NCBI RefSeq assembly: GCF_003010495.1
Contig: NZ_CP027570.1
Coordinates: 480,001-512,000 of the forward strand
Reading direction: 5' to 3'
Length of the DNA: 32,000 nt
DNA from: Megasphaera elsdenii DSM 20460
GTDB taxonomy: Bacteria; Bacillota; Negativicutes; Veillonellales; Megasphaeraceae
Part shown: piece by piece, positions 1,114-30,461 of the stretch
Numbering within the stretch: position 1 is the first letter of the stretch
Layout: each line of letters opens with the position of its first letter
Notes under the pieces: model-generated
What the model saw: only the letters and a program-made list of their open reading frames with translations
Database searches by the model: none
What the model was told of the DNA's origin: nothing
Position numbers and translations under genes: made by a program

Positions 1114-1160
1114 AGTTTTAAGTTTGTAGTTTTTAGTTTGCAGCAATAAGGCAAAAGAAT

Positions 1161-1205
1161 CTCTCCGGCCCGTTGGGCCACCTCCCCTATGAGGGGAGGC
1201 TTTGC
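1161..1205 (-). repeat. Inverted partial copy of the first ~42 nt of the 146-bp intergenic repeat unit
   Basis: The reverse complement reads aagcctcccctcataggggaggtggcccaacgggccggagag. This is identical to the 5' part of the units at 13114-13787. Confidence 0.8.
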
Positions 1206-3465: not shown

Positions 3466-4812
3466 CTAACGATGGGTAAATGTGTAACGTTTCAAATAGT
3501 AATGCAACAGTTCCGGCGATAAGTCGGTCCGCAAGGCATTGATCAGGTCGAAGAGGACGTTGGCCAGCTTCTTCGTATCGTGGGTGGCACTGTTTTCCTT
3601 GTTGATGAGGTCCGACAGGATGAGCGTCGCCCCGGCCTGGCTGACTTCCTTCTTGTCGATGATGACCGGATGGGACCCGGTGGCGACATAGCGCTGGAGG
3701 ACGGCCGGATCGACGTCACCGTTGTTGGCGATGACGAAGTCGATGACCCTGCCGCCGGCCTGGCGGTTGATGGCCTTGACGTGGTCGGATACGGTGTAAT
3801 CATCGGTTTCTCCGGGCTGGGTCATGACGTTGCAGATATAGATTTTCGGCGCCTTGCTGGTGCGGACGGCCTGGACGATATCGGGCACACAGAGATTGGG
3901 CATGATACTCGTATAGAGGCTGCCCGGTCCGAGGACGATGGCGTCGGCTTCCTGGATGGCCCGGACGGCGGACTGGATGGCCTTGGGATGTTCCGGTGTC
4001 GTAAAGACGCGCTTGATCTTGCCGTGGGCATGGGGAATCTGTGATTCCCCTTCGACGATGCGGCCGTCGGTCATTTCAGCGTTGAGGCGTATCTTTTCCG
4101 CCGACGACGGGATGACCTTGCCGCGGACGCGCAGGACTTTGCTCGTCGCATCCATGGCTTCTTCGACGTCGCCCAGGACTTCGATAAGGGCGGCAATGAA
4201 GAGATTGCCGAAGCTGTGGCCCGTCAGGTTGCCGGAGCCGCCGAAGCGGTGGGCAAAGAGCTTTTCCATGAGCCCTTCCTTATCGGCCAGGGCGACCAGG
4301 CAGTTGCGCAGGTCACCAGGCGCGATGATATCCAGGTCCTGGCGGATACGGCCCGTCGAGCCGCCATCATCGGCAACGGTGACGACGGCCGTCAGATTAT
4401 AGGTCTTGGCCTTGAGGCCGCGCAGCATGACCGACAGGCCCGTGCCGCCGCCGATGACGACGACCTTCGGCCCTTTGGACAGCTGCAGGTTGGAGAAGAT
4501 CAAGTCGCTGAGGTTCTCCGATTCGCCGGGCATGACGACGCCGATCATGGTGCGGATCAGGCGCCGCGTGGCCCAGGCCATGACGACCAGCCCCAGGAGG
4601 ATGACCAGGATGCCCAGACTGGCCAGGATGGTATAGTTATAATGGCCGGTCATTTCGTAGAGCAGGCGGAAAGCCCATTCTTCCAATTCTCCCAGCCATT
4701 GGTAGTTAAAGGTCAGGATAATGCCGAAGCTGGAACACATCATGCCCAGGCCGAAGAGGAAGAGCCATCGCTTGATGTGCAAGCCCGGATGCAGCCATTT
4801 CATAAAACGCAT
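3466..4812 (-). CDS. yvcK: YvcK / gluconeogenesis factor (UPF0052, CofD-like) with N-terminal membrane segments
   Basis: Motif VVVIGGGTGLSVMLRGLK and region VTVADDGGSTGRIR. Lies between rapZ and whiA. Confidence 0.9.
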   Translation of the reverse strand: MRFMKWLHPGLHIKRWLFLFGLGMMCSSFGIILTFNYQWLGELEEWAFRLLYEMTGHYNYTILASLGILVILLGLVVMAWATRRLIRTMIGVVMPGESENLSDLIFSNLQLSKGPKVVVIGGGTGLSVMLRGLKAKTYNLTAVVTVADDGGSTGRIRQDLDIIAPGDLRNCLVALADKEGLMEKLFAHRFGGSGNLTGHSFGNLFIAALIEVLGDVEEAMDATSKVLRVRGKVIPSSAEKIRLNAEMTDGRIVEGESQIPHAHGKIKRVFTTPEHPKAIQSAVRAIQEADAIVLGPGSLYTSIMPNLCVPDIVQAVRTSKAPKIYICNVMTQPGETDDYTVSDHVKAINRQAGGRVIDFVIANNGDVDPAVLQRYVATGSHPVIIDKKEVSQAGATLILSDLINKENSATHDTKKLANVLFDLINALRTDLSPELLHYYLKRYTFTHR

Positions 4813-4823
4813 GACAGCACCTC

Positions 4824-5729
4824 CTACGCTTCGCCTTCGTACCCCGGCGCATCTTCTTCGACGTCGTTCTTCTGGATATCCCGGTGTTCGATGGATACGT
4901 CGACACCATTATCCCGCAAATGCTTATACATGGCTTCAGCCATACAGACACTGCGGTGCATGCCGCCGGTACAGCCGACGGCAATGACCAGCTGGCTTTT
5001 GCCTTCCCGTTCATAGTTAGGCAGGAGGAAGTCGATCATGTCGAACCACTTTTCCTTATACGTCTGGGTAATGGGGAAACTTTCGACATAGTCGCGCACA
5101 CAGGGCACGCGGCCCGATTTATGACGGTATTCATCGATATAGTACGGGTTGGGCAGGAAGCGCACGTCTTCGACGATGTCCGCGTCGATGGGCATGCCGT
5201 GCTTGAAGCCGAACGAGACGACCGTGACGGTCATGTTCTTCTTGCTGTCCGTAATGGCATAGCGCTTGACCAGGATTTCCTTGAGCTGTTTCGGCTTGAG
5301 GTTCGACGTGTCGATGATGAAATCCGCTTTCTGGCGCAGGCTGGCCAGGCGCTTTCGTTCTTCGGCAATGCCCTGGCTGATGCGGCCGTGCGGGGCCAGG
5401 GGATGGACGCGGCGCGTTTCCTTGTAACGCCGTACCAGGGCCTGGTCAGAGGCTTCGATGAAGACGATTTCGTAGGAAATGCCTTCGGCCTTGAGGTCTT
5501 TCAGGCACTGGCTCATGGCATCGAAAAATTCACCGCCCCGGATATCGGCGATGAGGGCCACGTGGCGGACCCGTTCGCCGCCTTTGATGCATAATTCCGC
5601 GAATTTGGGAATCAGGACCGGCGGGATATTGTCGATGCAGAAATAGCCGATATCTTCCAGTACCTGGACGGCATGGCTCTTACCGGCACCGGACATGCCG
5701 GTGACAATGATCAAATGAAAATGGTCCAT
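4824..5729 (-). CDS. rapZ: RNase adapter / nucleotide-binding protein RapZ (YvcJ)
   Basis: Walker A motif in IIVTGMSGAGKSHAVQVLEDIGYFCIDNIP. C-terminal GCTGGMHRSV motif. 301 aa. Confidence 0.93.
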   Translation of the reverse strand: MDHFHLIIVTGMSGAGKSHAVQVLEDIGYFCIDNIPPVLIPKFAELCIKGGERVRHVALIADIRGGEFFDAMSQCLKDLKAEGISYEIVFIEASDQALVRRYKETRRVHPLAPHGRISQGIAEERKRLASLRQKADFIIDTSNLKPKQLKEILVKRYAITDSKKNMTVTVVSFGFKHGMPIDADIVEDVRFLPNPYYIDEYRHKSGRVPCVRDYVESFPITQTYKEKWFDMIDFLLPNYEREGKSQLVIAVGCTGGMHRSVCMAEAMYKHLRDNGVDVSIEHRDIQKNDVEEDAPGYEGEA

Positions 5730-10597: not shown

Positions 10598-12326
10598 GAT
10601 GACCTCCGCAAATATGGCAGCGCCGGCAGCCGTCAAAACAGGGAATCGTAAATTCGCCGGTCTCGGCCTTCTTCAGCTCGTCCGTCAGGTACGTCGGCAC
10701 CAGTCCCGTGTCGATCGTATCCCAGGGCATGACGGCATCGGTCGGACGCTGATCATATAAAAATCCTTTAATATCGAAATGAAGTTCCTTGGCCGCCCGC
10801 TTCCAGCCCTTGACGCCGCCGTACTCATGGGCCTTGACCAGGAGGTCGCCGACGCGGCGGTCGCCCCGGGACAGGACGCCCTGGATATAGGCCGAACGCA
10901 GGGGCTCGATGAGCAGCTCGATCTGCTTGTCCTTCAGGGCCTTCTTGAGGAAATTGAGCCGTTTCTCGACGACTTTCTTTTCCGTCATGGCCATCCACTG
11001 GAAGGGCGTGAAGGGCTTGGGGATGAAGGGGTTGATGCTCAGGGTGATGCGGCTCAGGTTGCCGATGGCCGCCATGTGCTGCTGGACGCGGCGGGTCATG
11101 TCGACGATGCCCTGTATATCGTCATCGGTCTCCATGGGCAGGCCGACCATGATGTACATGCGCACGTGGCGGATGCCGGCGGCCGTCGCCAGGTCGATGG
11201 ACTGGAGCAGGTGCTCCTCGGTAATGCCCTTGTTGATGATGTCCCGCATGTGCTTGCTGCCCGCTTCCGGCGCCAGGGTGATCGTCTTCTGGCCGCTTTC
11301 GGCCAGTCCCTTGACGATAGTCGGCGTAATCGAATCGGCCCGCAAGGACGCGCAGGAAAAAGCCAGGCCCTGGTCGCGGATGAAGGTGACCAGTTCGTCG
11401 ATGTAGGGATAATCGGAAATGGCTGCCCCCATGAGGCCGATCTTCTTGCCCAGCTCCTTGCCGCGCAGGACGGCAGACTTCACATAGTCCAAGGGGCGGA
11501 CGCGGGGCCGGCGGTAACAGTAGCCGGCCATGCAGAAGCGGCAGTGACGGCCGCAGCCCCGGGCAATCTCGATGAGGTACATGGCGCCGAACTCCGTATT
11601 CGGCGTGGCGATGACCGTCTCGGCCGGTTGGTCCAATTCATGCCATTGCCGTTCGACCTTGGCCGGGATGCCTTCTTCCGGGACGATGCGCACGACATGG
11701 CCGTCATCATCGTATTCGTGACGGTACAAAGACGGCACATAGACACCGGGAACGTGGATGGCCAGATAGCGCAGCAGTTCATGACGCCCCAGGCCCCGGG
11801 CCTTGCCTTCCCCATAGGCATCGAGGAAGGAATGGATGAAGTGTTCCCCTTCGCCGACCAGGACGACGTCGACGAAGGGCGACAGCGGTTCGGCATTGAA
11901 AAAGGCGACGGGCCCGCCCATGACGACGAGCGTATCCTCATCGCCGCGGTCAGCTGCCAGGATGGGGATACGTCCCATTTCCAGGATCTTCGGCACGTTG
12001 AAATAATCCATTTCAAAACTGACCGATAAGCCGAGGATCTCAAAATCCGACAGGGGCCGGCGGTTCTCCAGGGAAATGAGCGGTTCCCCCGTCTTGTCGA
12101 AGACCTTCATGAGGTCCTTGTCCGGCAGGAAGGCCCGTTCACAGAGCCAGTCCTCGCGGCCGTTCACTTCGCGGTAAATGATCTGCATCCCCAGATTGCT
12201 CATGGCCACGTCGTACGTATTGGGATAACAGATAGCCATGGCGTGACGCGTCCCGAACGGATAGCATACGGCTCCCGTTTCCTGGGCCATCAAATCATCC
12301 AGGGCCTTTTCGACTTGCCAGCTCAT
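10575..12326 (-). CDS. Radical SAM protein with N-terminal B12-binding-like domain (TIGR03960-like, about 580 aa)
   Basis: CxxxCxxC motif in ARGCGRHCRFCMAGYCY. GGAGG lies 7 nt upstream of ATG 12326 (ORF-track start is 12350). Confidence 0.8.
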   Translation of the reverse strand: MSWQVEKALDDLMAQETGAVCYPFGTRHAMAICYPNTYDVAMSNLGMQIIYREVNGREDWLCERAFLPDKDLMKVFDKTGEPLISLENRRPLSDFEILGLSVSFEMDYFNVPKILEMGRIPILAADRGDEDTLVVMGGPVAFFNAEPLSPFVDVVLVGEGEHFIHSFLDAYGEGKARGLGRHELLRYLAIHVPGVYVPSLYRHEYDDDGHVVRIVPEEGIPAKVERQWHELDQPAETVIATPNTEFGAMYLIEIARGCGRHCRFCMAGYCYRRPRVRPLDYVKSAVLRGKELGKKIGLMGAAISDYPYIDELVTFIRDQGLAFSCASLRADSITPTIVKGLAESGQKTITLAPEAGSKHMRDIINKGITEEHLLQSIDLATAAGIRHVRMYIMVGLPMETDDDIQGIVDMTRRVQQHMAAIGNLSRITLSINPFIPKPFTPFQWMAMTEKKVVEKRLNFLKKALKDKQIELLIEPLRSAYIQGVLSRGDRRVGDLLVKAHEYGGVKGWKRAAKELHFDIKGFLYDQRPTDAVMPWDTIDTGLVPTYLTDELKKAETGEFTIPCFDGCRRCHICGGHHDEVGRT

Positions 12327-12368
12327 GTATACACCTCCCCTTTCGTTCATCCTTTATAGGTAACCTAT

Positions 12369-12377
12369 ATTGTATCA
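12369..12377 (-). promoter_or_regulatory. Candidate extended -10 (TGATACAAT) for the radical SAM / division operon
   Basis: The minus strand reads TGaTACAAT about 45 nt upstream of ATG 12326. No good -35. Confidence 0.3.
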
Positions 12378-12444
12378 CAGAATGTCCCGATGGGCCAGCA
12401 GCGTCTTGCATCGCCTTCTCCATCGTGGTATGGTATTAATTGAT

Positions 12445-12470
12445 GTAGGGGCCGCTCAAAAGAGCGGCCC
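12445..12470 (+). repeat. REP-like hairpin, GTAGGGGCCGC...GCGGCCC family
   Basis: gtaggggccgc-tcaaaaga-gcggccc, 7-bp GC stem. Sister copies at 12646, 20163 and, inverted, 21771. Confidence 0.75.
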
Positions 12471-12483
12471 GCAGGTCGCCGTT

Positions 12484-12632
12484 CGCAGGCCGCAGGCCGC
12501 AAAGCCTCCCCTCATAGGGTAGGTGGCCCAACAGGCCGGAGAGGTTGAATTTCCGCACACTACTTCAAAAGCAACCTCTCAGTCAGCTTCGCTGACAGCT
12601 CTCCTATGAGGCGGGCCTTTTGAAAGACCCCC
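12484..12632 (+). repeat. Solo copy of the 146-bp repeat unit in the crcB 5' leader
   Basis: Aligns by eye with the array units over nearly its whole length. The aagcctcccctcatagg...ctcctatgaggcg core starts at 12502. Confidence 0.8.
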
Positions 12633-12645
12633 ACGGACCGCTTCC

Positions 12646-12671
12646 GTAGGGGCCGTCCCAAAGGGCGGCCC
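12646..12671 (+). repeat. REP-like hairpin, GTAGGGGCC family
   Basis: gtaggggccg-tcccaaaggg-cggccc, about 30 nt upstream of the crcB ATG. Confidence 0.7.
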
Positions 12672-12700
12672 GCTTATTTCATAAAAAAGGAGTCCTCTTC

Positions 12701-13081
12701 ATGGAAAAAGTCCTCTTCGTCGCCCTGGGCGGCGGCATCGGCGCAGGCTTGCGCTATTTACTCACGGAACTGGCCAACCTTCACGGCGGCGCCTTCTTCC
12801 CATACGGCACCGTCCTGGCCAATATCATTGGTTCCTTCTGCATCGGCGTCTTCTTCGTCTTCTTCTCCGAAAGCAGCAACCTGCCGCCGGTCGTCAAACT
12901 CTTCTTCGTCACAGGCATCCTCGGCGGCTTCACGACCTTCTCGACGTACAACATGGAACTCCTCACCTTCGTCCGCACCGGCGACCTCTTCCCGGCCCTG
13001 GCCTACTTCTCCTTCAACGTCATCGGCGGCTTCGTCTGCTGCTGGCTAGGCTTCGCCACGGGCAACGCCTTGTGGGGATAG
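12701..13081 (+). CDS. crcB: Fluoride ion channel CrcB/FluC (single copy)
   Basis: 126 aa with 4 TM segments. Motifs GGGIGAGLRY and GILGGFTTFSTY. GGAG lies 8 nt upstream of the ATG. Confidence 0.9.
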   Translation: MEKVLFVALGGGIGAGLRYLLTELANLHGGAFFPYGTVLANIIGSFCIGVFFVFFSESSNLPPVVKLFFVTGILGGFTTFSTYNMELLTFVRTGDLFPALAYFSFNVIGGFVCCWLGFATGNALWG

Positions 13082-13112
13082 TGTTAGTGGTTCGTGGCTA
13101 GGGGCTCGTAGT

Positions 13113-13787
13113 AAAGCCTCCCCTCATAGGGGAGGTGGCCCAACGGGCCGGAGAGGTTGAATTTCCGCACACTACTTCAAAAACAACCTCTCAGTCAGCT
13201 TCGCTGACAGCTCTCCTATGAGGCGAGCCTTGGGAAAGGCCCCCTCAGACCGCAGGCCGCAAGCCTCCCCTCATAGGGTAGGTGGCCCAACGGGCCGGAG
13301 AGGTTGAATTTCCGCACACTACTTCAAAAGCAACCTCTCAGTCAGCTTCGCTGACAGCTCTCCTATGAGGCGAGCCTTGGGAAAGGCCCCTCAGACCGCA
13401 GGCCGCAAGCCTCCCCTCATAGGGGAGGCGCCCCAACGGGCCGGAGAGGTTGAATTTCCGCACACTACTTCAAAAGCAACCTCTCAGTCAGCTTCGCTGA
13501 CAGCTCTCCTATGAGGCGAGCCTTGGGAAAGGCCCCTCAGACCGCAGGCCGCAAGCCTCCCCTCATAGGGGAGGTGGCCCAACGGGCCGGAGAGGTTGAA
13601 TTTCCGCACACTACTTCAAAAGCAACCTCTCAGTCAGCTTCGCTGACAGCTCTCCTATGAGGCGAGCCTTGGGAAAGGCCCCCTCAGACCGCAGGCCGTA
13701 AAGCCTCCCCTCATAGGGGAGGTGGCCCAACGGGCCGGAGAGGTTGAATTTCCACGCGGTGATTTAAAAACAACCTCTCAAGGGAGC
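13113..13787 (+). repeat. Tandem array (4.6 copies) of a 146-148 bp hairpin-dense non-coding unit
   Basis: Unit starts at 13114, 13261, 13407, 13553 and 13701. Copies differ by a few substitutions and 1-nt indels. No ORF of 60 aa or more in any frame. Confidence 0.9.
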
Positions 13788-13823
13788 AAAAAAGGCGCTG
13801 TCGCATGAAGACAACGCCTTTTT
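13788..13823. terminator. Bidirectional intrinsic terminator (near-identical copy of the one at 1078-1113)
   Basis: aaggcgctgtc-gcatgaa-gacaacgcctt with one mismatch. A-run 5' and T-run 3'. First convincing terminator downstream of crcB. Confidence 0.65.
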
Positions 13824-13989
13824 GAGTTTGAAGTTTGAAGTTGAAAGTTTGATGTGGATGGGACAAACTTTAAAAGCCATTGCCTCAAACATCATACATC
13901 AAACCTCAAACATTTAAGAAAAAGGGCCACGCATGATGGCAAAAGCCTTCGTGCGACAGCCCCCTTTTTTACTTTAGGCCGATACTTTC

Positions 13990-15432
13990 CTAATGCTGTG
14001 CCGGTGCGCCGACAGTCTTGGCTTCTTCTACGAGGCCGTCTGTTGCGATGGCTTTCTTGGATACGAAGCTGATGCCGCAGAAAGTGACGGCGCAGACGAT
14101 CCATTCGGCATAGATGACGTGCGGCAGTACGCGGACAGCCGGTACGAACATCCAGGCGACGAGGACGATGATGGAAGCCAAAATCGTGTAGAACGCAGCC
14201 TGTCTGGAGCAATATTTCGGTGCATACATGGTCATGAGGACGATGACTGCGAAAGCCGTCATAAGCGACAAGCCGGCCATGAGGGTCGAAATGATGCCGC
14301 TGATGGTCAGGGCGAAGCCCAAGGTCAGCAGGCCCAGGAGCAGGACAGAAATACGGGTAACGGTCATGTATTTCTTATCGGACATATTGGGGTCGATGAA
14401 CTGTTTATGAATATCATGGGAATAGAGCGTCGCAGCCGACAGCAGGAGATTGCAAGCCGTGCTGACATCGGCAGCCCACAGCGAAGCCAACGTCACGCCG
14501 GCAATCCAGGGATTGAGGGACATGATGAGTTTCGGCAAAGCCGTCGTCGGCGAAATAGCCGGATACATTTCGGCAGCGATGACGCCGAGGAGTGCTGCGA
14601 TGAAGCCAACGGGCAGCATGACCAGGCCGCCGATGATGAAGCCTTTGCGGGCCGTCTGGACATCCTTGGCACCCAGGGAAATCTGGATAATAGCCTGAAG
14701 CGAAACATTGACCGTAATGAGGACGACGATCCACGTGACAATAGTCATGGGGCCGACACCGCTGATGAGGTCCATGGACGTAATGGACGGAGCCTGGATA
14801 GCGACGACGTCGATACCGCCGGCCATGCTCAGGATAAGGAAAGCAGCGACGGTAATACCGATGTACTGCAAGGTAACATTGAGGACGTTAGACTGGCTGG
14901 CCGACCACATACCACCGATGAGGGTAATGCCGATGAAGACGACGGCACTGGTGAGCATCCCCGTAACCGGCGTGAAGATGTTCGGCATCAAAGCGGCCAG
15001 GATAGCGCCGCCGGCGACGTACTGCAAGCTCATGATGACCAGCTGGACCAAAACCTGACAGCCAATACCGGCAACCATGCTGCGGCGGTCATAATACCGT
15101 TCCAACAATTCCGGCACCGTCGTAATGTTGAGCTGACGATACTTCTTGGCGACCGTCAGGCCCATGACGATGGCCCCGATGCCCCAGGCAGCCGTATACC
15201 AACCGGCCGACAGACCGACTTTGTAGGCCTGTTCGGCAACGCCGATAGTCGAAGCCCCGCCGACAGCCAGGCCGACGATAGACACCATGATGAGGGGCGT
15301 CGTCAATTTACGGCCAGCCAATACGTAAGCTTCCGTCGAAGCGGCAGCCTTATGCTTGACATACCAGCTGATACCGAAGAGAACGCCGATGTACACTAAA
15401 ATAATGAAGACTTGAATCCCTGTGGTTCCCAT
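13990..15432 (-). CDS. Sodium:solute symporter family (SSF) transporter; T-box controlled, so probably an amino-acid importer
   Basis: 480 aa with about 13 TM segments. SSF-like N-terminus (YVLAGRKLT, VGGASTIG). Preceded by a T-box leader. Confidence 0.85.
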   Translation of the reverse strand: MGTTGIQVFIILVYIGVLFGISWYVKHKAAASTEAYVLAGRKLTTPLIMVSIVGLAVGGASTIGVAEQAYKVGLSAGWYTAAWGIGAIVMGLTVAKKYRQLNITTVPELLERYYDRRSMVAGIGCQVLVQLVIMSLQYVAGGAILAALMPNIFTPVTGMLTSAVVFIGITLIGGMWSASQSNVLNVTLQYIGITVAAFLILSMAGGIDVVAIQAPSITSMDLISGVGPMTIVTWIVVLITVNVSLQAIIQISLGAKDVQTARKGFIIGGLVMLPVGFIAALLGVIAAEMYPAISPTTALPKLIMSLNPWIAGVTLASLWAADVSTACNLLLSAATLYSHDIHKQFIDPNMSDKKYMTVTRISVLLLGLLTLGFALTISGIISTLMAGLSLMTAFAVIVLMTMYAPKYCSRQAAFYTILASIIVLVAWMFVPAVRVLPHVIYAEWIVCAVTFCGISFVSKKAIATDGLVEEAKTVGAPAQH

Positions 15433-15533: not shown

Positions 15534-15776
15534 AAAAAAAGAGTGGTACGCCAGGGACGGAAGATTCCGCGGTACCACCCTAATTATCTCGAATCGATCA
15601 ACTCATGGCCGTATAACGGCAGCCGTCCCGGTACAGCCTACTCACGTTCAGCCGTACAGTTCAGGAATGAACTTCATGCCCTCTCCCCTGTCCCCTCACA
15701 CCGGCCGGGGACTCTCTGAAAAGCTCAAAGACACTACTTTTTTCCATCACAACTGTTATCAGGAAATCTGTTGTTG
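15534..15776 (-). promoter_or_regulatory. T-box riboswitch leader (Stem I, Stem II/F-box, Stem III, T-box antiterminator, terminator)
   Basis: Minus strand elements: GA/K-turn GUGAUGG; specifier-loop AGUA...GAA; AG bulge AGAGAG; distal loop GGCCGGUGUGA; F-box CCGUUA; T-box AATTAGGGTGGTACCGCGG (plus 15567-15585). A 9-bp terminator GGGUGGUAC/GUACCACUC is followed by U7 (15540-15534). Confidence 0.85.
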
Positions 15777-21709: not shown

Positions 21710-21770
21710 GTTGGCTCCTTTTTGGGAATTAACACATATACGGCATAGGATTCACTTATATACGCAAGGC

Positions 21771-21840
21771 GGGCCGCCCTTTTGGGCGGCCCCTACATAC
21801 GGTCCATAGGACCGTTGCAAACTGCGAACTGCGAATCTCC
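21771..21840 (-). repeat. REP-like hairpins inside the ABC operon, between the SBP genes and the permease
   Basis: Inverted family copy gggccgcc-cttttg-ggcggcccctac at 21771-21796. ggtcc-ata-ggacc at 21801-21813. gcaaactgcgaactgcgaa motif also seen at 1130-1145 and 20261-20279. Confidence 0.65.
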
Positions 21841-21842
21841 GC

Positions 21843-22646
21843 TTACTGTACTTTAATGGTAATATCTTCGTTAAACCACTTCTGGGACAACTTAGTCATT
21901 GTACCATCTTCGCTCATTTGTTTCAAGACGTCGTTGAGTTTATCCTGCAAGAGCGTATCTTCTTTGCGCATGCCGACGCCGAATTTTTCGTCGCCCATCT
22001 TGTCGTCGATGACTTTGAATTTGCCCGGCTTCTTGGCCATGTAGTAACGGCCGACGACGCTGTCGACGAGGATGCCGTCGGTACGGCCGATTTCCAGGTC
22101 CATGAAGGCATTGACGAAGTCACCGTATTTCTTGACTTCTGCCAGGGAATCCTTGAATTCGGCGTTCTTTTCCAGGGCGTCGATGGAACTGCTCCCTTCC
22201 TGGGTGCCAATGACTTTCCCTGCCAGGCCGGCCCGGTCGCTAACCGGCGAATCGGCGCGGACGACGAGGAGCTGAGCGTTATTCATATACGGCTTGGAAA
22301 AGGCAATCTGCTGAGACCGTTCGTCCGTGATGGTCAAGCCGTTCCAAAGCATGTCGACCTGTTTGCTCTTGAGGGCCGCTTCCTTGCTGTCCCAGTCGAT
22401 GGGCTTAAATTCGACGGGGATGCCCAGGCGCTTGGACGCTTCCTGTGCCAGGTCGATGTCGAAGCCGACGAGCTGACCGCTGTCATCGCGGAAACCCATG
22501 GGCGGGAAGTTGTCGTCGAGACCGATGACGATCTTATCGGGCAGTTTCTGTGCTGCCTGTTTATCCGTATTGCCGCCGCAGCCGGCGATCATGGTAACGG
22601 CTGCGACAGCCAGGGTGCCCGCAGCCAGTGCTTTTTTCCAATTCAT
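21843..22646 (-). CDS. Amino-acid ABC transporter substrate-binding lipoprotein (paralog 1)
   Basis: Lipobox MIAGC. Motifs GLDDNFPPMGF, GFDIDLA, DMLWNGLTIT. Confidence 0.88.
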   Translation of the reverse strand: MNWKKALAAGTLAVAAVTMIAGCGGNTDKQAAQKLPDKIVIGLDDNFPPMGFRDDSGQLVGFDIDLAQEASKRLGIPVEFKPIDWDSKEAALKSKQVDMLWNGLTITDERSQQIAFSKPYMNNAQLLVVRADSPVSDRAGLAGKVIGTQEGSSSIDALEKNAEFKDSLAEVKKYGDFVNAFMDLEIGRTDGILVDSVVGRYYMAKKPGKFKVIDDKMGDEKFGVGMRKEDTLLQDKLNDVLKQMSEDGTMTKLSQKWFNEDITIKVQ

Positions 22647-22658
22647 GTAAATTCCTCC

Positions 22659-23456
22659 TTACATCGTGACGTCGATGCCAAACCATTTTTCAGAAATCTT
22701 CTTCGACGTACCGTCGTTGTGCATATCTTCCAGTACCTTGTCGATCCGGGCCTTCAGTTCCGTGTCATCCTTGCGCATGCCGACACCGCTGGGGATGTCC
22801 GGATAGCCGACGTCGATGATGCGGAAGGGCGCGTTATTCTTCTTGATGAAGTAGGCAGCTGTCGTCTGGGCGACGACAACGGCGTCGATGCGGCCGACTT
22901 CCAGGTCCATGAAGGACGTGACGTTATCCGAATACTGTTTCAATTCCTTGAAGGAATCGCGCAGTTCCGGTTCGGCTTCGATGGCTTCCAACCCAGTGCT
23001 GCCCTGCTGGGTGCCGACGATCTTGCCGGCCAGGTCGGCCTTGCCCTGGATGGGCGAGTCGTTCTTGACTAACAGGATCTGCGGGCCGTTTTCATAAGGC
23101 CGGGAGAAGAGGATGTTCTGTTCCCGTTCCGGCGTGATGGACAGGCCGTTCCAGATGGCATCGATTTTCTTGCTCTTCAGTTCCGTTTCCTTGCTGTCCC
23201 AGTCGATGGGCTTAAATTCGACTTCCATGCCCAGGCGCTTGCTGGCTTCCTTGGCCATGTCGATGTCGAAGCCGACGAGCTCGCCGCTTTCATCATGGAA
23301 TCCGAAAGGCGGGAAGTTATCATCGAGGCCGATGACGATTTTCCCCTTTTGAGCCGTCGCCCCCTTGTCGGTCTGTTTGTCAGCGCCGCACCCGGCGACG
23401 AAGGTTGCTGTCAGAAGTGCCGCCATGCCGGCAGCTGCGTATTTTCTCCATTCCAT
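22659..23456 (-). CDS. Amino-acid ABC transporter substrate-binding lipoprotein (paralog 2)
   Basis: Lipobox FVAGC. Motifs GLDDNFPPFGF, GFDIDMA, DAIWNGLSIT. ATG 23456 is preferred (GGGAG upstream); the ORF-track start is 23480. Confidence 0.88.
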   Translation of the reverse strand: MEWRKYAAAGMAALLTATFVAGCGADKQTDKGATAQKGKIVIGLDDNFPPFGFHDESGELVGFDIDMAKEASKRLGMEVEFKPIDWDSKETELKSKKIDAIWNGLSITPEREQNILFSRPYENGPQILLVKNDSPIQGKADLAGKIVGTQQGSTGLEAIEAEPELRDSFKELKQYSDNVTSFMDLEVGRIDAVVVAQTTAAYFIKKNNAPFRIIDVGYPDIPSGVGMRKDDTELKARIDKVLEDMHNDGTSKKISEKWFGIDVTM

Positions 23457-28276: not shown

Positions 28277-28365
28277 GGAAAGGTGTCCGAGTGGTTTAAG
28301 GAGCTAGTCTTGAAAACTAGTGATGCGGCAACGCACCGTGGGTTCGAATCCCACCCTTTCCGCCA
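28277..28365 (+). tRNA. tRNA-Ser (anticodon UGA), CCA encoded
   Basis: Acceptor GGAAAGG/CCTTTCC. Anticodon stem ctagt/actag with loop cuUGAaa. Long variable arm. T-arm gtggg-ttcgaat-cccac. Discriminator G followed by CCA. Confidence 0.92.
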
Positions 28366-28523: not shown

Positions 28524-29711
28524 TTATTGAATCATCTCTAGCTTCTTCTGCAGATCTTCACGCATGGCATTAGTGACATGTGTATAAATTTGTAGCGTCG
28601 TATTCGGATCATTATGGCCGACGCGCTGCATGATGGCTTTCAAGGGCACGTTCATTTCTGCCAGCATACTGATGTGGGTATGCCGGAAAATGTGCGTGCT
28701 TATTTTTTTGCCTGGAATCACCACTTGACGAAGCTTGGTATTGATGAACTGAATATTATAGGGCGCGCCCGTCCTGGTCGTGAAGATATAGCCTCTATCC
28801 TTGTATGTACGGCTAATGCAATTCGTGCGTGGCCTCCACAATTCCATGCGCTTATTATCAACCTGGAACCATTTTAAAATAGCAATGGACCGGCTGTTCA
28901 AGTCAATTGTCCGATAAGAATAAATGTTTTTTGGCGTGCCGCGCTGTATGTCTTCCCCATTCCTGGCCGACTTTAAAAGCGTGCCATTAATATTGGCCTG
29001 TCTTTTATTTATATCGACGTCCTGCCAGCGCAGGGCCAGTAATTCGCCGCAGCGAAGGCCCGTCAAGGTGATAAATTCCATTGCCAGGGCCAGCCGCGGG
29101 GACATTTTGCGAAGCTGTCTGAAACATTCCTGCCTTTCATCTTCATTCAAGAATTTATTGGTTCTTTTCTCCAATTCTTGCGGCGTCGCGGGGCGGCGTT
29201 TTAAAGTAAGCTCTTCAAAATCAGATACATCATCGATGTAGCCTGCCTTTTTCGCATACCGCATAATTCGCTTGATGGTGACTAATGTCGTCACGGAATA
29301 GGAGTAAGACAGCATTTCTTTATAATACATATTGGAAACAAGTTTTTCGGCCATGGCCGGGGTAAAATCAGCAAACAATAATTCATCGGGTACGCCCCGT
29401 TTGATACGCTTGCAATAGCAGTCTTGCGAATGGCGTGTTTCAATCTTGACCGTTGGCGCAATCGCTTCTTGCCATTCATCACAAACAGCCGTAAAAAGAA
29501 GGTTCTTTTTATGCTTTTGAGCCGCCCCCACAGCAGCTAAACGCTTATCATACTTTTCTTGCAACAGTTGCCGGGCCACTCGTTGAGCGTGCCTTGATTT
29601 GCTGTTCATCGTAACGGACAGGGGAATCTTCTTCCCTGTCACCGGATCCGTAAACCGTTCCCGGTATGAGTATCTTGTACCTTTACTATTTTTTAATTCA
29701 ACCATCCACAT
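28524..29711 (-). CDS. int: Tyrosine recombinase / phage-type integrase with N-terminal arm-binding-like domain
   Basis: C-terminal catalytic region HIFRHTHISMLAEMNVPLKAIMQRVGHNDPNTTLQIYTHV (R..HxxR..H..Y). ATG 29711 has AGGTAGGG 5 nt upstream. The ORF-track start at 29729 is GTG. Confidence 0.9.
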   Translation of the reverse strand: MWMVELKNSKGTRYSYRERFTDPVTGKKIPLSVTMNSKSRHAQRVARQLLQEKYDKRLAAVGAAQKHKKNLLFTAVCDEWQEAIAPTVKIETRHSQDCYCKRIKRGVPDELLFADFTPAMAEKLVSNMYYKEMLSYSYSVTTLVTIKRIMRYAKKAGYIDDVSDFEELTLKRRPATPQELEKRTNKFLNEDERQECFRQLRKMSPRLALAMEFITLTGLRCGELLALRWQDVDINKRQANINGTLLKSARNGEDIQRGTPKNIYSYRTIDLNSRSIAILKWFQVDNKRMELWRPRTNCISRTYKDRGYIFTTRTGAPYNIQFINTKLRQVVIPGKKISTHIFRHTHISMLAEMNVPLKAIMQRVGHNDPNTTLQIYTHVTNAMREDLQKKLEMIQ

Positions 29712-29742
29712 AGTAACCCTACCTTTCACGCGTCTTCTTGTA

Positions 29743-29864: not shown

Positions 29865-30461
29865 TTATCTTTTTTGATGTTTGAGTTTATTCAAAGCCTC
29901 CGTATATAACTTTTTATCCAAAGCATCCTTAGTATGATTAAGTGAATTACTGAGTAAGTTGAAAACGATATTAAAAATAGTCATTTGCAGTGTATTGGCC
30001 AATAGCGCATCTTTAGCTTTTGTATATTTTTTAGAAATAGTAGCCTCACGCATTATGTCCATAAACCATTCATTATCGAAAGTAAAAAAAATTAAATCAG
30101 AAACGCTAAATATAAAGTCCGGTTGTTCTGTAAAATCAGGTATCTGCACAGGTTGATTTTCTGGATTATATGCAATGACAACATGTGAATCTCTCCATCG
30201 AAAAACAGTAAAACCATTATTTTTACAGAAAGCCAGCTCTTCTTCTAAATCGTCTATCTGACCTGGATCATACCCTAATAAATCATCTATAGAAACATGT
30301 AACGTAGACGCAATTTTTTTTAATGTATCGTATTTAGGTTCACGACCTTGATTCTCATATGATATGTATGTCGTATATGGTAAATCAATAATTTTTGCAA
30401 ATTCTTTTGCAGTACATCCAGTATTTTCTCTATACCGCTTTAGATTTTCATTGAATATCAT
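29865..30461 (-). CDS. XRE-family HTH repressor (CI-like) with uncharacterised C-terminal domain
   Basis: N-terminal HTH LKRYRENTGCTAKEFAKIIDLPYTTYISYENQGREPKYDTLKKIASTL. No S24 peptidase Ser/Lys motif seen. RBS AAAGGAGGGAGG. Confidence 0.85.
   Translation of the reverse strand: MIFNENLKRYRENTGCTAKEFAKIIDLPYTTYISYENQGREPKYDTLKKIASTLHVSIDDLLGYDPGQIDDLEEELAFCKNNGFTVFRWRDSHVVIAYNPENQPVQIPDFTEQPDFIFSVSDLIFFTFDNEWFMDIMREATISKKYTKAKDALLANTLQMTIFNIVFNLLSNSLNHTKDALDKKLYTEALNKLKHQKR

Follow-up and report, generated by a model that had tools for sequence, protein, structure and literature searches.

The window analysed here is a stretch of 32,000 nucleotides from Megasphaera elsdenii DSM 20460 (contig NZ_CP027570.1, positions 480,001 to 512,000). 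It contains crcB, the gene for a fluoride channel, and a sodium:solute symporter (SSF) gene which converges on crcB. The spacer from crcB to the SSF gene measures 909 bp and accommodates a tandem array of a non-coding repeat unit at 13114-13753 (Tandem Repeats Finder: period 146, 4.4 copies, 97% matches, score 1222). Unit starts at 13114, 13261, 13407, 13553 and 13701 were obtained concordantly by BLAST, a covariance model and nhmmer. They are exactly those given in a preliminary description of the locus, made from the sequence alone, which had claimed a five-copy tandem array. The fifth and last copy is partial, as stated there; it ends about 80 nt into the unit instead of about 87 nt, after a tail arm CAACCTCTC at 13771-13779. 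The array is a real and well-defined feature of a known category, the bacterial interspersed palindromic mosaic repeats.

Comparison with dispersed copies resolved the unit into two parts, A and B, each of which is also present alone elsewhere. Module A comprises 46 nt, AAG-CCTCCCCT-cat-AGGGGAGG-t-GGCCC-aac-GGGCC-g-GAGAGGTTG, i.e. an 8-bp hairpin (CCTCCCCT/AGGGGAGG), a GC-rich hairpin of 5-6 bp and a conserved tail, GGAGAGGTTG. Module B comprises 48 nt, CAACCTCTC-a-GTCAGC-ttc-GCTGAC-a-GCTCTCCT-atg-AGGCGAGC-ctt. Reverse-complemented A and B were identical at 35 of 46 positions (76%), with an alignment score of 55 against 10.3 +/- 5.5 in 2000 shuffles. A covariance model, termed R1, was built from 42 distinct A modules and no B modules. 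R1 matched all five B modules of the window at full length on the opposite strand (31.9-39.9 bits, E-values down to 2.7e-10). Module B is a diverged reverse-complement copy of module A, and the array unit is an inverted doublet. The positions of crcB and of the array modules are listed below; for B modules the strand refers to the generic module.

12701..13081, plus strand: crcB, fluoride channel, 126 aa (open reading frame, ORF; PF02537 CRCB match)
13114..13159, plus strand: array module A1 (R1, 76.8 bits)
13184..13231, minus strand: array module B1, inverted copy (R1 on the minus strand, 39.9 bits, E 2.7e-10)
13261..13306, plus strand: array module A2 (R1, 72.5 bits)
13331..13378, minus strand: array module B2 (R1, 39.9 bits)
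13407..13452, plus strand: array module A3, with private changes (GGCGCCCC) (R1, 68.9 bits)
13477..13524, minus strand: array module B3 (R1, 39.9 bits)
13553..13598, plus strand: array module A4 (R1, 76.8 bits)
13623..13670, minus strand: array module B4 (R1, 39.9 bits)
13701..13746, plus strand: array module A5, terminal, found in every strain including those with 0.5 unit (R1, 76.8 bits; strain alignment)
13747..13779, plus strand: variant 24-nt spacer (aatttccacgcggtgatttaaaaa) and orphan tail arm CAACCTCTC, conserved in all strains

The order of modules is A B A B A B A B A. The variant spacer and the orphan tail arm (13747-13779) come next; the arm is predicted to pair with the tail of A5 in a 9-bp stem. 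The period of 146 corresponds to A (46 nt), a tail-to-tail spacer of 24 nt, the inverted B (48 nt) and a head-to-head linker of 28-31 nt. The preliminary description viewed the unit as a chain of short hairpins. All hairpins listed there were predicted by folding; the 9-bp stem 'gagaggttg-N24-caacctctc', however, is the junction of two inverted modules. Because B is an inverted copy of A, the two module tails face each other and pair. This tail junction and the two-module make-up had been missed, as had a partial seventh copy at 1157-1202 on the minus strand. Folding also yielded an alternative structure of the whole unit, cloverleaf-like, in which the first hairpin arm of A pairs with the last one of B. 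Covariation favours the local hairpins over this alternative.

The hairpins are preserved by compensatory changes. In module A (42 distinct sequences) 96.3% of cells were paired, and double changes from CG to UA were present at two pairs, in 7 and 12 distinct sequences. Both pairs are at positions which the search pattern left unfixed, and the covariation score was reached by none of 500 shuffles. In module B (35 distinct sequences) 91.6% of cells were paired; one pair showed a compensatory change, in 13 sequences. The tail AACCTCTC was almost invariant even though B was never part of any search pattern. The preliminary description had proposed that compensatory changes be looked for; they are present in A at two pairs and in B at one. 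Overall, 3 of 27 pairs covary and most stem positions never vary. This indicates a recently spreading sequence-specific repeat, not an ancient structured RNA.

The region from the crcB stop through the terminator (749 nt, 13082-13830) has a predicted folding energy of -354.6 kcal/mol, with z = -12.5 compared to shuffles. A search of the whole window against Rfam 15 at gathering scores returned a T-box and one tRNA alone, and the array had no match. At permissive E-values the best hit in 12300-14000 was an unrelated eukaryotic family (E 0.068). The Rfam search proposed earlier thus produced no relevant family for the array or the leader region. The array is probably not a dedicated gene product. 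Coding was rejected: the longest ORF within the array in the window ORF list has 51 aa, consistent with the earlier claim that none reaches 60 aa, the ORFs have merely 41-51 aa, the period is not divisible by 3 and indels separate the copies. A CRISPR array was likewise rejected since every segment of the period is repeated, spacers are not unique and no cas gene is among the called genes. The variable 24-nt spacer part is not guide-like either; instead of being unique, spacer sequences belong to a few classes related by indels.

The 350-nt leader of crcB (12351-12700) is full of hairpins. A sixth copy of the unit, claimed for 12484-12632, was found there at 12502-12641; it is a full copy and 94% identical to the array unit. 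Consequently, the gene is bracketed by the repeat, as had been pointed out. The first terminator after crcB is beyond the array, again as described: a stem at 13794-13818 is followed by U5, and a consensus scan detected no terminator-like site inside the array. The elements around crcB and the array, together with the seventh copy, are:

12445..12472, plus strand: GTAG-headed hairpin (GTAGGGGCCGCTC-aaaa-GAGCGGCCC) resembling repetitive extragenic palindromic (REP) sequences (fold -21.1 kcal/mol, z -5.0)
12473..12501, plus strand: heptamer filler (CGCAGGY)n, located 5' of module A at most sites (read from the sequence)
12502..12547, plus strand: leader doublet, module A (R1, 69.6 bits, E 2e-19)
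12548..12571, plus strand: leader doublet, 24-nt tail-to-tail spacer (aatttccgcacactacttcaaaag), common to 21 A-B doublets
12572..12619, minus strand: leader doublet, module B, inverted diverged copy (R1 at full length, 31.9 bits, E 8e-8)
12646..12673, plus strand: second GTAG-headed REP-like hairpin, then TTATTT (folding; terminator-like site 12650-12671)
13082..13113, plus strand: heptamer filler (TAGTGGY-like)n of varying copy number, separating the array from the crcB stop (strain alignment)
13788..13823, plus strand: bidirectional intrinsic terminator, the first after crcB (A-run, stem 13794-13818, U5 at 13819-23)
1157..1202, minus strand: lone module A (R1, 67.5 bits, E 1e-18), conserved in loci L154-L156

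The second GTAG hairpin with its TTATTT is situated just upstream of the crcB ribosome-binding site. The GTAG-headed, GC-rich hairpins constitute a second repeat family of classic REP-like form (GTAGGGGCCG-N7-9-CGGCCCGC), with copies at 12445-12472, 12646-12673 and 21769-21798 (minus). Two of them flank the leader A-B doublet, and the motif also follows A-B doublets in L010, L011, L014 and L038. The wider mosaic around the modules comprises (CGCAGGY)n and (TAGTGGY)n filler, a GGTCCC-n-GGACC hairpin and the GTAG hairpin GTAGGGGCCG-N-CGGCCC. Degenerate heptamer fillers were seen at 12473-12501, 13082-13113, 13824-13851, 1113-1140 and about 21808-21830; they are of the types (CGCAGGY)n, (TAGTGGY)n, (GAAGTTT)n and (GCGAACT)n and differ in copy number between strains. 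The terminator at 13788-13823 (fold -19.4 kcal/mol, z -4.0) has a paralogous perfect copy at 1077-1112. The duplication includes a 28-nt heptamer tail (1077-1140 and 13788-13851, 91% identity, same orientation), and each copy is in a convergent intergenic region and adjoins a module A.

The exact CrcB protein was indexed in 2526 collection blocks, and the gene neighbourhood was unchanged in all ten loci examined. An integron reading was rejected. GCCCAAC and GTTGAAT resemble attC core sites; they are neither mutually complementary nor correctly placed, and crcB looks widely conserved in a constant neighbourhood, which also speaks against a gene cassette. The fluoride riboswitch RF01734 had no match in 12300-14000, even at E<=10.

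The modules belong to a family dispersed in Megasphaera. In a genome scan the exact 20-mer of module A was present in M. elsdenii, M. intestinihominis, Megasphaera sp. WILCCON 0056 and metagenome-assembled genomes of uncultured Megasphaera; outside the genus there were isolated chance matches only. A looser pattern retrieved more than 119 stretches among the matches listed, mostly from gut metagenomes. In viral contigs 3 stretches matched the module pattern. A distant BLAST search of the plasmid collection with one unit gave no match. Profile searches of all fetched loci (~1.1 Mb) identified about 300 modules at roughly 50-75 distinct genomic sites, an approximate count because sites were partly de-duplicated only. 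Three sites were present in a contiguous M. elsdenii segment of about 52 kb, made up of the window and 10 kb to either side. Extrapolated from this, a genome would hold tens of sites, perhaps a hundred or more; the estimate is rough and biased. The literature contained no paper with these module sequences or on Megasphaera extragenic repeats, so as far as could be checked the family is undescribed.

Modules occur as singlets, tail-to-tail doublets, head-to-head doublets and arrays. Tail-to-tail spacers have 0, 12-27, 52 or 78-365 nt, head-to-head linkers 0-3, 24-31 or about 87 nt. A and B are on the same strand in 84 of 86 distinct neighbouring pairs, i.e. the orientation of the generic module alternates. 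Subfamilies with another small hairpin (GACCGCC/GGCGGC) or an insertion of about 69 nt in the large hairpin exist in both orientations. At L032 an AAA-ATPase (DUF4143-like) gene is located between direct B-type modules, 3889-3936 and 5557-5605, which carry the different small hairpin (GACCGCC/GGCGGCC); the bracketing echoes that of crcB. At L094 (3600-3770), 3' of tpiA, a long terminator hairpin has the stem cgggctcgctagcgcatcgctc ... gagcgatgcgtcagcgagcccg and a subsequent T-run, and its loop is occupied exactly by a head-to-head B-A doublet (3640-3745). The appearance is that of a doublet which entered an existing hairpin, or of a terminator stem which is itself a further mosaic layer.

The size of the crcB array varies between strains. 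Ten assemblies with an identical CrcB protein were compared and six loci were aligned; the crcB DNA differed at two positions across these six. All ten assemblies had the doublet in the leader and, at the array end, A5 with its spacer and tail arm. Internal doublets amounted to 0.5 unit in five assemblies, 2.5 in three, 3.5 in one and 4.5 in the window as assembled. The complete genomes HE576794 and CP027569 carry 2.5 units each. Recent amplification, which the preliminary description had deduced from the near-identity of the copies, agrees with this range among strains with the same CrcB protein. Ongoing homogenisation, its other suggestion, is not indicated by the data: orthologues of the first and last units are recognisable in the different strains, and there are substitutions private to single units. 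Therefore, the array evolves by expansion and contraction and not by concerted homogenisation. The wide range of copy numbers among otherwise identical strains argues that crcB does not depend on a particular array length.

Next, the position of modules relative to genes is considered. Gene orientation was taken from greedy longest-ORF calls, as a C3-minus-G3 codon-position statistic discriminated unreliably; the counts are approximate. In the sampled loci no site was convincingly inside a gene. Co-directional and convergent intergenic regions were far commoner than divergent ones (21 convergent vs 6 divergent). Of 27 sites with a lone A module, 25 were 3' of a gene in the same orientation (17 '++', 8 '+-', 2 '--', 0 '-+'), often 6-120 nt beyond the stop codon. 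Doublets had no orientation preference (16 vs 11), and lone B modules were rare (7 vs 27 lone A). The lone A at 1157-1202 has the sense orientation of the minus-strand gene 1220-2527; it is located 17 nt beyond the stop and is followed by the terminator at 1112-1077. Both 3' sites of the window thus have the layout stop codon, A in sense, bidirectional terminator, one on each strand and 12 kb apart. This indicates that singlet orientation is tied to transcription and not to the direction of replication, on the strength of two cases only.

With moderate confidence we interpret the array as a tandem cluster of a lineage-specific family of extragenic palindromes which is similar to REP sequences, to REPINs (REP doublets forming hairpins) and to bacterial interspersed mosaic elements (BIMEs). 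Several REP-type properties are found in the modules: hairpin palindromes, dispersed extragenic sites at 3' ends and alternating inverted doublets and clusters. The closest match is the hierarchy of REPs, REPINs and tandem REPINs in Pseudomonas fluorescens together with the BIME-2 arrays of REP/PU sequences in Escherichia coli (Gilson et al. 1991, cited in PMC3337134). In P. fluorescens SBW25 REPINs and E. coli BIMEs both doublet orientations and tandem arrays of up to five REPINs are known, and the origin of such ordered arrays is unexplained (PMC3337134). SBW25 REPINs (Bertels & Rainey; PMC3116915, PMC3337134) share with the Megasphaera family the inverted short palindromic modules with a spacer which form a long hairpin, the occurrence as singlets, as doublets in both relative orientations and as ordered tandem arrays, and the extragenic, lineage-specific location. 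They differ in that the host here is a Negativicute (Firmicutes) and there a proteobacterium. Here the module has two hairpins and a conserved tail, there one palindrome with a GTAG head; moreover, the arms here have diverged into A and B types with 76% identity.

The preliminary description had noted a likeness to E. coli BIMEs in logic and not in sequence. This holds more literally than was argued there, as the array is a series of palindromic modules in opposite orientations with two linkers in alternation, and its family is dispersed in intergenic DNA. E. coli BIME-2 arrays contain REPs of types Y and Z2 in alternating orientation, joined by two linkers which likewise alternate, and they differ in copy number. 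They are found 3' of genes and in convergent intergenic regions; being part of the transcript, they stabilise the mRNA upstream or attenuate transcription, and they are bound by integration host factor, gyrase and Pol I. The Megasphaera array also has two alternating module types, A and B, two alternating linkers, variation of copy number and 3'-end sites. Sequence similarity is absent, the modules have 46 nt compared with about 35 nt in E. coli and the period is 146 nt. The BOX elements of Streptococcus pneumoniae, boxA-(boxB)n-boxC with direct 45-nt boxB repeats, are often co-transcribed with neighbouring genes. They too are modular intergenic repeats of a Firmicute with variable tandem modules and extensive predicted RNA structure; their sequences are unrelated and the repeated unit here is, in contrast, an inverted doublet.

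On this REPIN-like reading, array size may change by slippage or by unequal recombination between units which are 97-98% identical. Dispersal may be brought about by an enzyme acting on single-stranded DNA hairpins; a protein like the REP-associated tyrosine transposases (RAYTs) or another HUH/IS200-type transposase is a candidate. The array is probably co-transcribed with crcB as a hairpin-rich 3' untranslated region (UTR), in line with the roughly 700-nt 3' UTR proposed in the preliminary description, because no terminator is present between the crcB stop and the array end. By analogy with REP/BIME elements, the RNA hairpins would mainly protect the crcB message from 3'-to-5' exonucleases or influence its read-through.

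Several points weigh against this interpretation. A phmmer search with an approximate E. coli RayT query and a scan for HUH/Y motifs over 4471 ORFs in the ~1.1 Mb of loci detected no RAYT or IS200-like ORF, a weak test on a sample that is small and biased; SBW25 differs in this respect as well. REP-rich genomes are tied to RAYT groups 2 and 3, which were characterised mainly in Escherichia and Pseudomonas, and for Clostridia group 1 RAYTs alone are reported (PMC5581495). A and B do not have the GTAG head typical of RAYT-associated REPs. They start with AAGCC... and have the conserved 3' tail GGAGAGGTTG in place of a GTAG/GTGG head, while a separate GTAG family adjoins. Formal membership in REP/REPIN/BIME is therefore not established. 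Tandem copy-number change is the only polymorphism documented, with no case of filled versus empty sites, so mobility is deduced from dispersal alone. The conservation of the module A tail was in part forced by the search patterns used. Finally, lone A has a sense-strand bias in co-directional contexts (17 vs 2). This bias is not obviously predicted by a purely DNA-level selfish repeat and hints at selection at the RNA level. Taken together with the rarity of lone B, it is the one observation which a purely selfish-DNA reading leaves unexplained.

An alternative is a family of miniature inverted-repeat transposable elements (MITEs), i.e. non-autonomous deletion derivatives of an insertion sequence (IS) with the ~46-nt modules as terminal inverted repeats, moved by a DDE transposase in a cut-and-paste or copy-paste fashion. 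The array would then have arisen by repeated nested or adjacent insertion. MITEs such as the Correia elements of Neisseria and bcr1 of Bacillus cereus have defined termini and target-site duplications (TA, TTTAT) and often are transcribed. As in the Megasphaera family, they are non-coding, of roughly 100-160 nt, have inverted ends and are dispersed in intergenic DNA. Inverted copies of one module delimit the doublets; in head-to-head doublets (about 95 nt) the closing inverted ends are extended, e.g. AAGCAACCTCTC...GAGAGGTTGCTT, and the doublet in the terminator loop 3' of tpiA (L094 3640-3745) is placed as if inserted. However, tail-to-tail doublets, head-to-head doublets and many singlets coexist, hence a single constant pair of outer ends is not apparent. 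Flanks of about 25 inspected copies had no target-site duplications and consisted of heptamer filler or other mosaic motifs. In the fetched loci no ORF-carrying element was bounded by modules. Two candidates for a module-bounded IS were rejected, a membrane-protein gene at L094 and the AAA-ATPase gene between the direct B-type modules at L032; neither encodes a transposase. The strain differences at crcB are whole-unit tandem changes with conserved end units and not new insertions. The preliminary description had considered that the units might turn out to be a MITE or IS derivative. The doublets indeed are inverted-repeat structures, yet neither a target-site duplication nor a parent IS was seen, and we consider a MITE origin unlikely.

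Alternatively, the module or doublet may be a functional structured RNA, a protein-binding or regulatory element whose dose on the crcB transcript would be multiplied by the array. Examples would be a protein sponge or scaffold, a source of small RNA from the 3' UTR, and a ribosome standby or anti-Shine-Dalgarno element. This would be consistent with the location of lone A, nearly always in sense after a gene, and with the window sites in which A follows the direction of the gene on both strands. On the A strand, pair 10-16 is a U-G wobble in 5 distinct sequences; on the other strand it would be a C-A mismatch. The compensatory changes in A and B and the folding of 13082-13830, mostly array, far better than shuffles are in line with it. 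Hairpin H1 pairs CCUCC with GGAGG, and the tail GGAGAGG is Shine-Dalgarno-like as read from the sequence. On the other hand, stem sequences are nearly invariant beyond their pairings, and covariation at 3 of 27 pairs is typical of recently spread repeats. Doublets are found in both orientations relative to genes, 0.5-4.5 units among otherwise identical strains mean that no particular dose is required, and an Rfam family is lacking. A dedicated RNA function, including the small-RNA source and the protein-binding scaffold suggested in the preliminary description, therefore appears doubtful.

A further possibility, to which we assign a low probability, is that an uncharacterised Megasphaera system with sequence specificity recognises the modules at the RNA level (or as transcription-coupled single-strand DNA). 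It would fit the conserved tail GGAGAGGUUG, which is kept even in singlets without a pairing partner, the almost exclusively sense location of lone A just after genes, and the rarity of lone B, the tail of which is C-rich and anti-Shine-Dalgarno-like (CAACCUCUC). If true, the crcB array would be a variable-dose sponge for protein or ribosomes or a source of 3'-UTR small RNA, and the first REPIN-type system with its own enzyme would be described in Negativicutes. Inflation of one unit by repeat mis-assembly is highly improbable: an N-gap inside the array in scaffold L152 and several draft contigs ending within modules indicate that the repeat disturbs assemblies, but independent assemblies carry 2.5 units (among them the two complete genomes, which answer the artefact check proposed in the preliminary description) and 3.5 units, and the units have distinct private substitutions and tile consistently.

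Other features of the window were noted. The SSF gene (13990-15432, minus; PF00474) is preceded by a T-box leader at 15550-15759 (minus, 133 bits) and presumably encodes an amino-acid transporter under tRNA-charging control. A tRNA-Ser(TGA) at 28277-28365 is followed by a phage-type integrase and a helix-turn-helix repressor (28524-29729 and 29865-30461, both minus); in matching genomes a MobA/MobL relaxase is encoded just past the window end. The arrangement resembles an integrative mobilisable element that has integrated at the tRNA. A direct repeat of 300 nt with 63% identity (22064-22363 and 22871-23170) probably reflects tandem paralogous genes, as two adjacent SBP_bac_3 genes are located there in L157-L159.

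Knowledge of crcB and fluoride resistance is unchanged by these findings, save that this crcB is without a recognisable fluoride riboswitch. The repeat family accounts for contig breaks and scaffold gaps in Megasphaera assemblies and could be masked or modelled by annotation pipelines. The crcB 3' spacer with its 0.5-4.5 units is a ready strain marker of the variable number of tandem repeats (VNTR) type. Highly ordered REPIN/BIME-type arrays have been studied almost solely in Enterobacteria and Pseudomonas, and a Negativicute (Firmicute) lineage now joins the short list of bacteria that possess them. If the sense bias of the singlets holds genome-wide, the Megasphaera family would be a tractable case for RNA-level selection on such repeats.

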